Below, in pieces: positions 1 through 15,921 of a stretch of DNA of 64,000 nucleotides. Origin of the DNA: a virus (lineage: Duplodnaviria; Caudoviricetes); IMG/VR virus record IMGVR_UViG_3300015214_000004, positions 1 through 64,000 of that record. One strand, 5' to 3'. The first letter of the stretch is position 1, and every line of letters begins with the position of its first letter. A model generated the notes under the pieces. It searched no databases, was not told the DNA's origin, and saw nothing but the letters and a program-made list of their open reading frames with translations. The position numbers were made by a program, and so were the translations under genes.

Positions 1-43
1 CATTTTTGATGCAAATTTCTTCACTCACCAATTACCAACAGCG

Positions 44-235
44 ATGAGAACTTTACAGGAAAAAAATCCTGAATGGTTTCAAAATGGTGTAAATATCATA
101 AACGATATTAAACGCACTAATAATACTAATGACTTTTCTCAATTGATGGAACTTATTGATAAAGGTTTTCCAACTTATCAAATAGAGCTTGGAAAAATTG
201 ATGCAAAGATTGACTTTATGGCAGGGCTTGTTTAA
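44..235 (+). CDS. Hypothetical cassette-borne protein, possibly 5'-truncated by the window edge
   Basis: ORF stops a few nt before the core site GCATAAC (242-248) of attC-like site A. Confidence 0.5.
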   Translation: MRTLQEKNPEWFQNGVNIINDIKRTNNTNDFSQLMELIDKGFPTYQIELGKIDAKIDFMAGLV

Positions 236-241
236 GCTGTT

Positions 242-373
242 GCATAACGTTACGCAGGTATGGTTAGTTTGCCATACAAAGTACAAATGATTATTAACAG
301 ATAAAATTAAATAAAATGAGTAAACTTGGATTAAACGCAGAAAACGGCAAATTAACTATACCTGATGTTATAA
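242..373. other. attC-like hairpin site A
   Basis: Left arm GCATAAC-GTTACG-CAGGTATGGTTAGTTTGCC (242-273) pairs with right arm GGCAAATTAACTATACCTG-AT-GTTATAA (346-373), with two G.T wobbles and a 72-nt loop. Confidence 0.8.
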
Positions 374-531
374 GCCGTTTATTGGCAATGAAAAATGGTG
401 AAGACTTGCCAGAATTTGACCCTAGTCAAGCAGGTGATACAACCTACTGTGTTGAATGGGGTATCAAAAAAGGTGAATGGATTACTGATGGAATTATTGA
501 TAGGTATATCGAAGAGCTAAATGGCTTATAA
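316..531 (+). CDS. Hypothetical protein of cassette 1 (367-532)
   Basis: ATG lies in the loop of site A and the stop TAA lies inside the core TTATAAC. Cassette ends GTTATAAGCC and GGCTTATAAC are perfect reverse complements. An internal Met start is also possible. Confidence 0.6.
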   Translation: MSKLGLNAENGKLTIPDVISRLLAMKNGEDLPEFDPSQAGDTTYCVEWGIKKGEWITDGIIDRYIEELNGL

Positions 532-1367
532 CGGATACGTGTAGAAGCAGTACGGCGCAAAGCACAAAAGTTGATTAAATGAACAAAAGTAATTTTTTAA
601 AAAGCCTAACGAAATGCCTAAAAAGAGAATTTTAATAGGATGTGAATTTTCTCAAATTGTAACATCGGCTTTTATTGAAAAAGGATATGATGCTTATTCA
701 TGTGACATATTACCATGCGAGGGTAAATATCCTGAAAAACATTTAAGAATGGATATTCACAAAGCTATTGATTTTATTGGATGGGATTTTATTGGACTAC
801 ATCCGCCATGTACTAAAATTACTCTCTCCGGAAATAGGCATTATGCAGAAGGTAAACCAAGACATAATGAAAGAAAAGAAGCTATTGAATGGACCATTGA
901 CTTATGGAACCACGCTTGTATGAAAGCAAGCAAAGTATATATGGAAAATCCTTTAGGTGCAATGAATAATGATGACAGATTGCCTAAGCCTCAAATTATA
1001 CAACCTTATTATTTTGGTGATAATATTCCAAAAAAAACATGTTTATGGTTGAAAAATTTGAATTATTTGATATGGTCTGATTACAATACATTATTTGAGG
1101 CAAAAACAAGTGTAGAACCGGAATATGTAATTTATAATTCGAAGAAAAACAAGAACGGTAAAAGTAAATATTCTGTTTTTGGAAAATTGGGCAAAGGACA
1201 CGGGCATGAAAGATCGGTGTTTTTTCCTGGAGTTGCAAAAGCAATGGCCGAACAATGGGGTTTTGATTTATATAACGATATGTCAATGGCTTTTTTAAAA
1301 AATGGCGAAAACCTACAAACCAAAATCGAAGCACATGAATAGTATTGCTTTTACACGGTGTTGTATG
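523..1367. other. attC-like site B with a gene in its 788-nt loop
   Basis: Left arm TAAC-GGATA-CGTGTAGAAGCAGTAC (529-553) pairs with right arm GTATTGCTTTTACACG-GT-GTTG (1342-1363). Confidence 0.75.
614..1342 (+). CDS. Small phage-type DNA cytosine-C5 methyltransferase
   Basis: N-terminal SAM-binding variant IGCEFSQ..AYSCD, catalytic HPPC, ENP motif and C-terminal AKAMAEQWG. Confidence 0.75.
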   Translation: MPKKRILIGCEFSQIVTSAFIEKGYDAYSCDILPCEGKYPEKHLRMDIHKAIDFIGWDFIGLHPPCTKITLSGNRHYAEGKPRHNERKEAIEWTIDLWNHACMKASKVYMENPLGAMNNDDRLPKPQIIQPYYFGDNIPKKTCLWLKNLNYLIWSDYNTLFEAKTSVEPEYVIYNSKKNKNGKSKYSVFGKLGKGHGHERSVFFPGVAKAMAEQWGFDLYNDMSMAFLKNGENLQTKIEAHE

Positions 1368-1439
1368 GCGAAGCGAACAGTTGCGCCGGACTGTTGGCTT
1401 CAGATTAAAGAAAAGATTTCCGGCGCAATTGCATACAAC
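1360..1439. mobile_element. 80-bp ORF-less cassette 2
   Basis: Ends GTTGTATG and CATACAAC are complementary. Internal inverted repeat TTGCGCCGGA (1381-1390) / TCCGGCGCAA (1419-1428). Confidence 0.7.
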
Positions 1440-1532
1440 GGCTGGCGGTATGGTTATGTAAGCCCTACCACATCGCTATCCAATTACAATAAAACTTTAT
1501 AGGGCTTATTAACTATACCGCTTGTTAGCGTT
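1431..1532. other. attC-like hairpin site C
   Basis: CAAC-GGCTG-GCGGTATGGTTA-TG-TAAGCCC pairs with GGGCTTA-T-TAACTATACCGC-TT-GTTA; loop about 34 nt. Confidence 0.8.
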
Positions 1533-1569
1533 TCGTTTTTGAGCGTTGGCGGTACAAAACTTAAATAAA

Positions 1570-1851
1570 ATGAATAATATTTTAGATGAAATTAATGACA
1601 ATTTGCTTGAAAAAGCAATTTATGACGAAACCGATAATGAGTTTAAAAATGGTAAGGTTTTATTTTCAGATATCGTAAATGAATTAGATAAACACAGGGT
1701 GAATAACACCTATGAAAATGCGGTTAAACCATTAATGAAATGGTTGGCTGAAAATTGTCATCCACATACAAAAGCAATAGTTGAAAGTAATCTCTCTGAA
1801 TTAGTTGAAGGAGTTAAATCTTTTAATACAGATGAATTTTTGGTTGATTGA
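1570..1851 (+). CDS. Hypothetical protein of cassette 3 (1524-1873)
   Basis: ATG at 1570 after an A-rich leader. Cassette ends are GTTAGCGTT / AACGCTAAC. The ORF is flanked by direct repeat TTGAGCGTTGGC (1539-1550, 1848-1859). Confidence 0.7.
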   Translation: MNNILDEINDNLLEKAIYDETDNEFKNGKVLFSDIVNELDKHRVNNTYENAVKPLMKWLAENCHPHTKAIVESNLSELVEGVKSFNTDEFLVD

Positions 1852-1863
1852 GCGTTGGCAAAT

Positions 1864-1962
1864 GAACGCTAACGGTCGAGTGTATGAGAAGGTTTGCTTA
1901 GATGAACTTTCAAATTACCACAAATGCTGATAGCAAACTTTCTTATACACCTTGTTATAAAC
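1864..1962. other. attC-like hairpin site D
   Basis: TAAC-GGTCGA-GTGTATGAGAAGGTTTGC pairs with GCAAACTTTCTTATACAC-CTT-GTTA as an 18-bp stem with two G.T wobbles; 35-nt loop. Confidence 0.8.
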
Positions 1963-2123
1963 TGTATTGGCGATTATGTATACGAGGTGAAAAGTATCAT
2001 AAGCCTATTGTGAATAGAGCAACCTCACGCCCTAACCACTATGGCAGCATACACAATAAGACTGAGAATAGCTTAGGAAACGCAGAAGTGTTCCACGATA
2101 CGGCAGCCAATATGGTTTATAAC
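1954..2123 (+). ncRNA. Cassette 4, candidate structured ncRNA cargo
   Basis: Ends are GTTATAAAC / GTTTATAAC. Nested stems TATTGGC/GCCAATA, TATTGTG/CACAATA and CTGAG/CTTAG, plus a possible GAGGT/ACCTC pseudoknot. Confidence 0.4.
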
Positions 2124-2570
2124 GGTCAGCAATATGCTGTCGTGGCATGAATTACGTACTAACTTTGATACGAAGAACAAATAAAATTAATTTATGAAAA
2201 GAAAATATAATAAAAAAATAAAGTGGGTGTATATGATTGTTCTTGTCTTATTAAATATATTAATTGTAATGTTATACAATGCTATTAATTTAATAGATTG
2301 GCCTTTTAATAGTTTATATATAAAAATTATTCTACATATAGTAATATGCTGGATTATTTTTTTATTATATATAGACAGGGATTCATCGATTAATTATGAT
2401 CATAAAGGACAATTCTTAACTAAAGAATTAATAGATGAATATAGAAAACAAAATGAAATGGATAATGAAAGCTGTTTTGATCAATGTAATTAATTTCATT
2501 TAATGAATAACACAGACGTTCAATCGAAGCCACTACCAAGCCATGCAGTATATTGCATGTTGTGGTGGCG
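2114..2570. other. attC-like site E with a gene in its 393-nt loop
   Basis: TAAC-GGTCA-GCAATATGCTGTCGTGGC (2120-2146) pairs with GCCATGCAGTATATTGC-AT-GTTG (2540-2562). Confidence 0.75.
2194..2493 (+). CDS. Small membrane protein (two predicted TM helices) in the loop of site E
   Basis: Basic N-terminus followed by two hydrophobic stretches. Flanked by direct repeat AATTAATTT (2185-2193, 2488-2496). Confidence 0.6.
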   Translation: MKRKYNKKIKWVYMIVLVLLNILIVMLYNAINLIDWPFNSLYIKIILHIVICWIIFLLYIDRDSSINYDHKGQFLTKELIDEYRKQNEMDNESCFDQCN

Positions 2571-2618
2571 AAGCGAACGTTTTAATGCACTACAACTATT
2601 ATATGTAATTTACATTTG
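2559..2618. promoter_or_regulatory. 38-bp mini-cassette, attI-like site and integrase promoter box
   Basis: GTTGTGGTGG..GCACTACAAC (2559-2596), then TA-TTATATGTA, near-palindrome ATGTAATTTACAT and TACATTTG (2611-2618, TAnnTTTG box). Confidence 0.6.
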
Positions 2619-2647
2619 AAATGTATTAATATATAAATAATTATGAT

Positions 2648-3481
2648 ATGAACATCGGAAAATACACATCACAACTTTCCGAATATATGGAATATAAGAA
2701 ATATGCTGTAAATAGCATTGAAAATTATATTTCGTCATTAAAAATATTTTTAGAATACTTTAATGTGAAAGCCACAAAACCAAGTGAAATATCAAAAAAT
2801 GATATTATATCATTTCTAAAGGAAATAAAATCAGTTAATACTCATAAAGCATATTTATGTGCTATTAAGTTATTTTATACTAAAATTATTAACCAACCTG
2901 AAAAATGCGCTAAAATAGAACAACCAAGAAGTAACAAAAAATTACCAATCGTCCTTACACAAGAAGAAGTTCAACGTATGTTTAATGTCTGTAATAATTT
3001 AAAACATAAGGTAATATTGAGTTTATTATATGGTTGTGGTTTAAGGGTATCCGAATTGATTAATATACAATGGTCTAACATTGACAGGTCTGCAATGATA
3101 TTGAACGTAATATCTGGAAAAGGGAAAAAAGACAGGCAAGTTGATTTACCGGATAATATTATACCATTACTTGAAAAATATTATCGTGAATACAGGTGTA
3201 AGCCATTTATATTGTCAGGGCAACTTAAAAACAAATATACGCAAGGAAGTATTCTAAAGGTTGTTAAGAAATATGCTGATTTAGCTGGCATATCAAAAAG
3301 AACATATACACACCTTATGAGGCATTGCTCATTTACGCACATGGCAGAAAACGGAGTTGATTTAGGATATATCCAGAGATCGGCAGGGCATGAAAGCCCA
3401 ATAACTACAACAAGATATATACATATGAGCCATAACCTTGTAAAAATGGCAAAATCACCATTAAACAATATAAAATTATAA
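2648..3481 (+). CDS. Tyrosine recombinase, integron-integrase-like but lacking the IntI-specific insertion
   Basis: Motifs KKLPIVLTQEEV, LLYGCGLRVSE, GKGKKDR, HLMRH, AGHES..TTRY and C-terminal KSPL. About 65 aa separate GKG from HxxR. Confidence 0.9.
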   Translation: MNIGKYTSQLSEYMEYKKYAVNSIENYISSLKIFLEYFNVKATKPSEISKNDIISFLKEIKSVNTHKAYLCAIKLFYTKIINQPEKCAKIEQPRSNKKLPIVLTQEEVQRMFNVCNNLKHKVILSLLYGCGLRVSELINIQWSNIDRSAMILNVISGKGKKDRQVDLPDNIIPLLEKYYREYRCKPFILSGQLKNKYTQGSILKVVKKYADLAGISKRTYTHLMRHCSFTHMAENGVDLGYIQRSAGHESPITTTRYIHMSHNLVKMAKSPLNNIKL

Positions 3482-3485
3482 TAAT

Positions 3486-3821
3486 ATGGAAATAGGATTA
3501 ATAGAATTAGAAATATCAAAAAATGAACATGACGGTTCACTTGCAGAGAAGATATTAAAAGCAAGGAGGTGGAAAGAAGAAAGGATTGGTTTTATTCAGG
3601 ACTGTTTAAAATACAATGTAATGACGCCAAAACAATTTTGTGACCTTACAGGCATGGTAGAATCAAATGTTACATATCTGTTAAAGCCGAACAATAAAAA
3701 AGGTTGTTTAGATACGGAGCTTGACCATTGTTATCCGTTCAGGAACAGGAAAACACCTGGTCCCCGGTTTATTGTAATTAATGAAAAGTGTATTGAATAT
3801 TTAATCAAGAAAAACAAATAG
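3486..3821 (+). CDS. Hypothetical protein, possible HTH DNA-binding domain
   Basis: MTPKQFCDLTGMVESNVTYLL is HTH-like; operon-coupled to the integrase. Confidence 0.4.
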   Translation: MEIGLIELEISKNEHDGSLAEKILKARRWKEERIGFIQDCLKYNVMTPKQFCDLTGMVESNVTYLLKPNNKKGCLDTELDHCYPFRNRKTPGPRFIVINEKCIEYLIKKNK

Positions 3822-15200: not shown

Positions 15201-15890
15201 GAAATAACGGTGGGTATATGGTGCGTGGCGTTCAATTACGCACTGAATTAGATACGAAGAACTGAACTAGTAATTTATTTTTTTGCGATGGCAAAATTAA
15301 ATGGAATTGGATCTCACCAATCGGCTAATATGAAAAACGACGAATGGTTAACTCCTCCCGAATTAATTAAAAAATTAGGGCCTTTCGACTTGGATCCTTG
15401 CGCTCCAATTAATAGACCATGGGAAATGGCTAAAAAACATTTCACTATAAATGATAATGGTTTATTGCAACCTTGGAATGGTTTTGTTTGGTGTAATCCT
15501 CCATACGGATTAGAGGCGGCAAAATGGTTAGAAAAATTAGCCAATTATGGAAATGGAATTGCTTTGATATTTGCCAGGACTGAAACAGATATGTTTTTTA
15601 GGTGGGTTTGGAATAAGGCATCTTCATTACTATTTATTGAAGGTAGATTGTATTTTCATTACGTTGATGGATCCAAAGCAAAAGCAAATAGTGGGGCACC
15701 TTCTGTTTTGGTAGCTTATGGATCCGAAGCTACGGATAGGCTTAAAAACTCAGGAATTAACGGAATGCACATTTATCTTAACAGTTTTGAAAAAACTGAA
15801 GCGCGTGGGCAAAAAATAAATTACGGTCAATCTGTGATAAACTTTGAAACGGAGCACGGATAGCCATGCACTATATACCGTGTTATGTTG
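15201..15890. other. attC-like site F with a methyltransferase gene in its loop
   Basis: GAAATAAC-GGTG-GGTATATGGTGCGTGGC pairs with GCCATGCACTATATACC-GT-GTTATG. The loop start shares AATTACG.ACT..TT.GATACGAAGAAC with site E. Confidence 0.75.
15288..15863 (+). CDS. Phage DNA N6-adenine methyltransferase (Dam-like family)
   Basis: DEWLTP, FDLDPCA, WCNPPYG, LIFARTET and SGAPS motifs. Confidence 0.9.
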   Translation: MAKLNGIGSHQSANMKNDEWLTPPELIKKLGPFDLDPCAPINRPWEMAKKHFTINDNGLLQPWNGFVWCNPPYGLEAAKWLEKLANYGNGIALIFARTETDMFFRWVWNKASSLLFIEGRLYFHYVDGSKAKANSGAPSVLVAYGSEATDRLKNSGINGMHIYLNSFEKTEARGQKINYGQSVINFETEHG

Positions 15891-15921
15891 TCGTTTTAAT
15901 GCAACATAACAGTTATATGTA
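15882..15921. other. 29-bp mini-cassette followed by a second attI-like site
   Basis: GTTATGTTG..CAACATAAC (15882-15910), then AG-TTATATGTA, the same spacing as at 2594-2607. Confidence 0.6.

Follow-up and report, generated by a model that had tools for sequence, protein, structure and literature searches.

Integrons are defined by an integrase, IntI, whose extra domain is thought to enable the recombination of attC sites folded from single-stranded DNA. The bottom strand of a classical attC site has the form R''...AA|C-hairpin-GTT...R' (5'-RYYYAA|C...GTTRRRY-3'), with exchange at the 5' triplet, and integrons have been regarded as bacterial devices of which phages carry fragments only. According to IntegronFinder 2.0, they are nearly absent from the complete genomes of Bacteroidetes (PMC9024848). 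Clusters of attC sites lacking an integrase (CALINs) have been described in virulent phages, including Polaribacter phage P12002L, and were read as bacterial integron parts carried by phages; one P12002L attC was recombined by IntI1, and one site of this phage passes both IntegronFinder and HattCI (Qi et al., 2023; PMC9892861). The locus analysed here lies at the start of a 64,000-nt stretch of DNA (hereafter the window), which is the first 64 kb of the 74,838-bp IMG/VR phage record IMGVR_UViG_3300015214_000004 (Caudoviricetes), and consists of an array of hairpins and small genes that ends at a tyrosine recombinase gene. Phage attC clusters without an integrase were already known (PMC9892861); what is new is an array linked to a dedicated recombinase, a variant of the integron. 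A full-text literature search revealed no account of such a phage platform linked to a recombinase.

The locus is probably a phage-encoded cassette platform of the integron type, in which the recombinase, judging from the comparisons of related sequences given below, would excise the units as circles and insert them at an attI-like junction, the genes facing the recombinase. The array comprises seven cassette units and terminates 51 nt 5' of the gene encoding the 277-aa recombinase. The window has a GC content of about 33%, bears nearly all its genes on the + strand, and holds only part of the array (242-2596), since the array locus crosses the artificial ends of the record, which carries a terminal repeat of 123 nt. 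Two extra sites lie across the join in locus L004 (record 64,001-74,838; base 1 of the window is base 10716 of L004), at L004 10063-10175 and 10470-10582 (record 74,063-74,175 and 74,470-74,582), as found with the covariance model and in the sequence itself, and their R boxes chain on into window 238-248. An R' partner for the R'' flank of the first of these sites was sought upstream and none is present; L004 10063 is therefore taken as the distal end of the array, which gives the count of seven units.

Five hairpins bounded by AAC and GTT (sites A-E), with complementary ends on every segment between them, had been listed in the original prediction, and all the coordinates and sequences quoted there are correct. 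The end pairs 367-376/523-532 (10/10), 1360-1367/1432-1439 (8/8), 1524-1532/1865-1873 (9/9) and 1954-1962/2115-2123 (9/9) match throughout, and the pair 2559-2567/2588-2596 matches at 8/9, the sole exception being a G opposite a T; a repeat search lengthens two of the pairs to 15 nt (inverted repeat I14) and 18 nt (I6), so that the range in the window is 8-18 nt. The same property was measured in relatives in 106 neighbouring site pairs, by setting the 10 nt that follow GTT against the reverse complement of the 10 nt that precede the next AAC. At least 7 of the 10 positions match in 47 pairs, and 9/10 in 25, low scores mostly denoting a site missed in between. The two flanks of one hairpin, for which a lack of matching outside the AAC/GTT triplets had been noted, reach a mean match of 3.7 versus 3.4 for random pairs. 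The complementarity of R' and R'' is specific to each cassette, which is the signature of a circular intermediate.

The limits of the mobile unit emerge from an all-against-all comparison of the arrays, in which those homology blocks that reach 200 nt and have recognisable ends extend from AAC to AAC in 19 cases and from GTT to GTT in none; the mobile unit is a hairpin 5' of its ORF (open reading frame). Two loci, L065 and L063, whose recombinase regions are 98.8% identical, have four cassettes in common at 98-100% identity and in different orders (c-d-e-...-f versus e-...-f-d-c), and every time the identity starts or stops at a junction it does so within TAAC|G, the resolution of the crossover being limited by the shared TAACG. 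In locus L022 (2368-4095) a single 334-nt cassette is present three times in one array at 99.7-100% identity. Unit A of the window recurs outside the phage: a wastewater-metagenome contig carries window 253-537 with 2 differences, with another R'' box on the left and another hairpin on the right. Moreover, the depth in the source metagenome is 106-147 at site C and 234-290 at site D, compared with a phage depth of about 18, and hairpins C and D are points at which contigs break, from which it follows that these hairpin sequences are common to many other cassettes. Arrays with unlike last cassettes converge exactly at the attI-like junction, and in most related loci the recombinase start codon is preceded, at a distance of about 51-55 nt, by an AAC with a TAYTATATGTA-type motif after it (AAC|TATTATATGTAATTTACA at 2594 in the window). 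The end complementarity, the AAC-to-AAC blocks and the breaks in TAAC|G together bear out the proposal that cassette-specific ends are recombined at the AAC/GTT core, and the comparison of cassette orders that had been suggested as a check gave, for L065 and L063, the outcome expected of a shuffled array. Two contig joints, 268>1359 and 1550-1572>1848-1856, were considered as excision products and rejected; their sides agree over 20-30 nt at 90% likeness and probably derive from other cassettes sharing motifs.

The sites themselves are attC-type imperfect hairpins whose structure is conserved over sequence. A strict hairpin detector was run over 1.18 Mb surrounding the recombinase genes (418 kb upstream and 765 kb downstream) and returned 178 + strand sites upstream, 36 + strand sites downstream and 54 - strand sites in the whole 1.18 Mb, a strand bias that is inflated, and to that extent counts less for the proposed platform, because the detector admitted G-T pairs and a fixed spacer asymmetry. 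The detected sites concentrate less than 3 kb from the recombinase gene. Alignment of 34 sites from different loci gives invariant AACG and TGTT ends and a stem of 21 modelled pairs, 85% paired versus 40-46% with the partner slid; these sites had been pre-selected for pairing, and the weight lies on covariation and positional enrichment rather than on the percentage paired. The covariation score is 0.54 versus 0.13, and compensatory changes occur in 17 of the 18 variable pairs. One G-U pair is kept in 32 of the 34 sites, in a column independent of the rules of the detector, and no conserved bulges, that is, extrahelical bases, are present in the 34 aligned sites, which have conserved G-T pairs at fixed positions instead. 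The covariance model built from these 34 sites of other phages (R1), a search that the original prediction had recommended, yields 108 matches, which are spread over 18 loci and without exception fall on the recombinase strand, 107 lying upstream of the gene; all have one orientation, and the inverted sites typical of shufflons are not found among them. R1 under-detects short sites, the short-loop sites of P12002L having been seen only by eye. It gave no support to a heuristic site match at window 15,840-15,895, and an Rfam search over the locus and L005 returned chance microRNA-type matches only.

The + strand of each site reads 5'-R''...AA|C-hairpin-GTT...R'-3', and since this is the form of the bottom strand of classical attC, the minus strand reads like a canonical integron, with int, attI and then the cassette-attC units. 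The opposite arrangement is seen in the genes: 88% of the ORF bases in the arrays lie on the recombinase strand and face the recombinase, and the canonical orientation away from attI is not observed. Both the canonical minus-strand geometry and the ORFs pointing toward the integrase had been anticipated, and the orientation of the ORFs and the 19 versus 0 units agree with them. Among the non-Watson-Crick stem positions of the + strand, G-T (204) far outnumbers T-G (31), C-A (30) and A-C (18), and in 108 of 126 sites (p = 5e-18) the + strand gives the more stable fold, a bias that the rules of the detector exaggerate. In the window, the energies for the + and - strands are -14.5 and -9.1 kcal/mol at site A, -17.2 and -15.1 at site C, and -14.8 and -9.8 at site D. 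Of the 97 long sites (at least 105 nt), 49 contain the start of the next ORF, versus 3 of the 47 short sites; this accounts for the two length classes of site, and the series extends to whole ORFs in the loop (sites B and E).

From a biochemical perspective, the recombinase has all the expected catalytic residues (R133, K158, H222, R225, H248 and Y257), invariant in the 31 sequences of alignment A1. All its NCBIfam scores are under the cut-offs (XerA 174.7, XerD 150, IntI 147.7 and XerC 134.8 bits; the cut-off is 265 bits for the IntI model TIGR02249 and about 330 for the XerC and XerD equivalogs). TIGR02249 aligns in two pieces, model positions 3-178 and 241-314, and against VchIntIA (2a3v) residues 9-177 correspond to 8-179 and residues 201-273 to 246-318. 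Query 177-201 thus spans VchIntIA 179-246, and the IntI-specific segment (I2, or additional domain) of about 43 aa is absent, in agreement with the shorter distance from Lys to His by which its loss had first been noticed. Trees were built from 48-59 sequences after removal of the insertion columns, and in them the short family and canonical IntI group together against XerC and XerD (support 100/100 under LG+C20 PMSF; SH-aLRT 100 in a quick tree). Canonical IntI stands, weakly supported, within a grade of short forms, and the phage clade is nested among the chromosomal short forms of Bacteroidota; the trees include only eight closely related Bacteroidota IntI, since the control genomes supplied no canonical IntI, assume a root on XerC and have several long branches, all of which tells against leaning heavily on them. 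On this placement, which had been proposed as a check, the recombinase is a member of the IntI lineage rather than a generic Xer. Furthermore, three host-type genomes (G001-G003) each have three such genes: a true XerD, an XerC-like one and the short recombinase linked to the array. The family is large (1,798 proteins at E <= 1e-30), and its profile recovers 80 IMG/VR loci at 48-59% identity, the same layout being found in about 80 phage contigs; among GenBank phages no close relative of the recombinase was found, the best being 33% identical.

Close homologues of the recombinase sit on contigs of metagenome-assembled genomes of Pedobacter, Chitinophagaceae, Flavobacterium and Saprospiraceae, which indicates Bacteroidota hosts. 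Homologues 32-39% identical are present in Bacteroidota chromosomes, cultured strains included, and the covariance model has matches in 33 of 80 such loci. In a Sediminibacterium locus (L153), the single one examined in detail and the one on which the chromosomal orientation rests, the R boxes clearly form a chain, the array is found downstream of the recombinase gene and its ORFs run opposite to the modelled strand, which is the canonical cassette orientation; the genome is without canonical IntI. The claim of a distinct phage cassette system holds for the recombinase-linked, shuffled array, with the qualification that the system is not confined to phages, related recombinases with the same sites being carried by Bacteroidota chromosomes. 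The phylum, in which Ignavibacteria, Chlorobia and similar classes may be counted here, was sampled through 401 genomes: 114 of them match the short family at E <= 1e-60, and 113 carry, at other loci, a canonical IntI that passes the cut-off. This number of genomes with a full-length IntI over the TIGR02249 cut-off far exceeds the near-absence reported earlier (PMC9024848). One 6.7 Mb Bacteroidales chromosome has four short-recombinase loci with model matches (L148, L149, L162 and L164), some on both sides of the gene.

According to the proposed mechanism, a unit would extend from one AAC to the next and comprise an attC-like hairpin, an R' box peculiar to the unit, in most cases a single small gene, and the complementary R'' box, the hairpin being made up of AAC, a spacer of 5-6 nt, a stem with G-T wobbles, a loop, the other half of the stem, a spacer of 2-3 nt and GTT. 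The recombinase is predicted to excise units as circles, in which R'' and R' would pair and complete the site, and to insert them at the attI-like junction 51 nt before its own start codon. The + (coding) strand would be the one that folds and is exchanged, like the bottom strand of classical attC, and the genes, many of them starting inside a hairpin loop, would be read with the phage early operon. The parts of this scheme that the comparisons show are the position of the crossover within TAAC|G, the occurrence of units in varying order and in more than one genome, and the tie of the sites to the recombinase in position and strand. As to the transcription of the array, a G+C-rich hairpin followed by a T run is found at L004 9500-9545 (record about 73,500), just before the array, with an AT-rich stretch after it; because this terminator-like hairpin and the AT-rich stretch precede the array, the latter seems to stand at the head of the early operon.

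Several points, besides those raised above for the hairpin counts and the trees, weigh against the proposed platform. A second landfill metagenome shows an array order identical to that of the window, two further metagenome runs (X3 and X4) cover it in part only, no near-isogenic relative of the window phage with a different array was found, and excision, circle and insertion were not observed for the window phage, the evidence being comparative. Sites B and E need folding across 400-800 nt. The G-U pairs on the sense strand would suit an RNA role equally, and the wobble and energy data are also compatible with hairpins that act in the mRNA. Finally, classical IntI uses its additional domain for folded attC in the single-strand pathway (Escudero et al., 2016; PMC4792948), and the present enzyme is without this domain; single-strand recombination is thus a prediction here, to which the strand-biased wobble pairs and the folding energies point indirectly.

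The absence of that domain, the Xer architecture of the enzyme and the lack of conserved bulged bases in the sites would all be expected if the recombinase of the same platform acted in the Xer manner on duplex core sites (the R'' box, the 6-nt spacer and the start of the 5' arm), the hairpins not being the substrate, and classical IntI does retain an ancestral double-strand activity (PMC4792948). This is nevertheless unlikely: compensatory changes keep stems of 15-19 bp in otherwise unrelated sequences, whereas a 30-bp duplex site needs none, the mismatches are skewed to G-T on one strand, and the pairing of R' with R'' is restored in the circular form only. It is also quite unlikely that the hairpins are integrase-less attC clusters served by a canonical IntI of the host, with the phage recombinase devoted to lysogeny, dimer resolution or another function. 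Such an IntI is available in the 113 of 401 genomes mentioned above, IntI1 can recombine an attC of a flavobacterial phage (PMC9892861), and P12002L carries sites without such a recombinase, but the single orientation of the sites and the junction conserved at 51-55 nt from the recombinase start in most of the roughly 80 loci do not fit this explanation, nor does the position of the recombinase lineage as the closest relative of IntI, and canonical IntI is absent from the Sediminibacterium chromosome in which an array adjoins a short recombinase.

Very improbable, lastly, is that the hairpins are regulatory RNA, terminator-like or REP-like (repetitive extragenic palindromic) elements, with shuffling by homologous recombination between them. 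A precedent exists in the promoter-stem-loop modules of T4-type phages, for which shuffling by homologous recombination has been proposed, and the sense-strand hairpins with G-U pairs, the start codons inside long sites (49/97) and the multi-copy state of the hairpin sequences in the community, visible as depth spikes, would all be in keeping with it. Homologous exchange, however, yields no cassette-specific complementary ends, its boundaries would be scattered across the common hairpin instead of being sharp at TAAC|G, and the link to the recombinase gene would be left unexplained. As for simple terminators, which the original prediction had named as an alternative to exclude, no intrinsic-terminator-like sites are found within window 1-3700.

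Among the 150 array ORFs of at least 72 aa, 19 encode DNA methyltransferases (10 N6_N4, 5 C5, 3 Dam and 1 EcoRI-type), 2 are PAPS-reductase-like, and one each encodes a TET-associated glycosyltransferase, a Tad3 inhibitor of Thoeris and a Lar restriction-alleviation protein; two families of nucleoside deoxyribosyltransferases are matched by one member each, possibly by one ORF, and the remaining array ORFs are mostly without a family. The 242-aa ORF of unit B matches phrog_757 (DNA methyltransferase) with an E value of 8.7e-48, has homologues in four other arrays, and is put by the Atlas among viral cytosine methyltransferase clusters. As far as family matches can tell, this cargo of orphan DNA methyltransferases, DNA-modification enzymes, Tad3 and Lar suggests a shuffled store of counter-defence genes.

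Features of the cassette array and recombinase gene in the window
Feature	Window position	Strand	Details
3' part of the ORF of the second cassette	2..235	+	full ORF 106 aa, start at L004 10630 (record 74,630); ORF list and sequence across the terminal repeat
Cassette unit A	246..532	+	site A 246-369; arms 255-273 / 346-364; R' box 367-381; ORF 316-531; R'' box 518-532
Cassette unit B	530..1439	+	split site: AAC 530-532, spacer 533-538, 5' arm 539-548; 3' arm 1347-1356, spacer 1357-1359, GTT 1360-1362
Cassette unit C	1437..1873	+	site C 1437-1526; R' box from 1524; ORF 1570-1851 (93 aa); R'' box end 1873
Cassette unit D	1871..2123	+	site D 1871-1956; arms 1880-1898 / 1932-1950; 18-nt complementary ends 1954-1971 / 2106-2123
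Cassette unit E	2121..2596	+	split site: AAC 2121-2123, 5' arm 2129-2139; 3' arm 2541-2558, GTT 2559-2561; connector 2559-2596
attI-like junction	2594..2647	+	last AAC, then TATTATATGTAATTTACA; ends at the recombinase start codon
Tyrosine recombinase, placed in the IntI lineage by the trees, 277 aa	2648..3481	+	Pfam PF13495 and PF00589; alignment to 2a3v; trees

Sites A, C and D are compact imperfect hairpins, while in B and E the arms are separated by about 800 nt and 400 nt, respectively, a stretch that in each case includes a whole ORF. These split sites keep the usual ends, namely AAC, a spacer of 5-6 nt and a stem opening with GTGTAG or GCAATATG on one side, and the stem, 2-3 nt and GTT on the other. 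The covariance model scores site A at 97.7 bits, site D at 57 bits and site C at 37.1 bits with the filters off, and the 5' halves of B and E at 16 and 21.2 bits, the arms of the latter two having been read directly from the sequence. Inverted repeats mark the arms and boxes of site A (I3 and I14) and the arms and ends of site D (I4 and I6). The ORF of unit A (71 aa) has its ATG within the hairpin loop, and the 'loop' of unit B holds the methyltransferase ORF (614-1342). Unit B ends in an ORF-less R'/R'' connector at 1360-1439 (fold -20.8 kcal/mol, z -4.0), and the fold of site C (-17.2 kcal/mol) has z -3.4. The 93-aa ORF of unit C matches phrog_16206, the loop of unit E holds an ORF of 99 aa (2194-2493) that is membrane-like, with a weak match to TIGR04570 (two transmembrane segments), and the 106-aa ORF of the second cassette has no family match. 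The ORF at 1902-2150 (82 aa), which starts in the loop of site D, is doubtful because it overruns the AAC of unit D by 27 nt and ends within the 5' arm of site E; either it is no gene or its C-terminus depends on the neighbouring cassette.

A few sequence features of these units are recorded in their own right. The ends of unit D are unusually long in complementarity (18 nt), and a direct repeat, TTGAGCGTTGGC, brackets the ORF region of unit C (1539-1550 and 1848-1859); its two copies appear to be joined in short metagenome contigs, on supporting sides shorter than 30 nt. Both ORF-less R'/R'' connectors carry GGCGAAGCGAAC (1367-1378 and 2567-2578), which includes the heptamer GCGAAGC, the unusually stable DNA mini-hairpin; GCGAAG is also present in many 5' arms at other loci.

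A wider reading is possible and is put forward tentatively: the short recombinases may be an ancestral-type grade of integron integrases, natural enzymes that operate attC-like arrays without the I2 domain and serve a cassette pool shared between Bacteroidota and their phages. The phages may have turned the genes onto the recombining strand, where the site carries start signals, and thereby acquired counter-defence genes that head the early operon as a rapidly reshuffled bank. Bacterial integrons have recently been found to store anti-phage defence cassettes, and a phage store of counter-defence would mirror that. If the platform works as proposed, phages would have a dedicated mechanism for exchanging counter-defence genes, which would explain many 'hypervariable early regions' of Bacteroidota phages. 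A complete platform in the window phage and about 80 others, with a sister enzyme lacking the I2 domain, makes the role and the origin of this domain testable, and chromosomal relatives have cultured carriers in Pedobacter ginsengiterrae JCM 17338 and Robiginitalea marina 2V75.

With regard to known systems, the array resembles shufflons (Rci) and pdif modules in having a tyrosine recombinase beside many short sites that bound segments, but those need alternating site orientation, while the sites here have one orientation and give permutations, not inversions. XerC, XerD and XerA share the length, the two-domain architecture and the catalytic residues of the recombinase, and XerA is its best NCBIfam match (174.7 bits); it differs from XerC and XerD in scoring under the cut-offs, in its placement with IntI, in having an array instead of dif, and in that the hosts have an XerD and an XerC of their own. 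Chromosomal arrays of the L153 type have a recombinase 32-39% identical that likewise lacks the insertion, the same hairpin type and chained R boxes, and differ in the side of the array and in the strand of the ORFs. In P12002L (L088), sites of the present type, chained by their R boxes, are recognised by eye on the minus strand between methyltransferase genes (29.1-31.3 kb and 38.0-39.3 kb), with one weak match to R1 and no recombinase of the window family; its CALINs are thus similar in sites and in methyltransferase-rich cargo, whereas the window array ends at a dedicated recombinase. Compared with classical integrons (class 1 and the chromosomal ones of Vibrio), the array is carried by a phage, its genes occupy the equivalent of the attC bottom strand and face the recombinase, and start codons or whole ORFs lie in the loop. 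The enzyme is without the I2 or additional domain and reaches 147.7 bits against the 265-bit cut-off of classical IntI. The spacers next to the core are of 5-6 nt versus 2-3 nt, in line with the arm geometry described in the original prediction, although sites of this type remain inside the range of attC forms known from phages (PMC9892861), and conserved G-T wobbles replace the bulged extrahelical bases. What the two have in common is a tyrosine recombinase beside the array, a putative attI-type junction, AAC/GTT hairpins with specific R boxes, a crossover at the conserved triplet, cassettes that are duplicated and reordered, ORF-less units and, on the minus strand, the canonical geometry of the integron.

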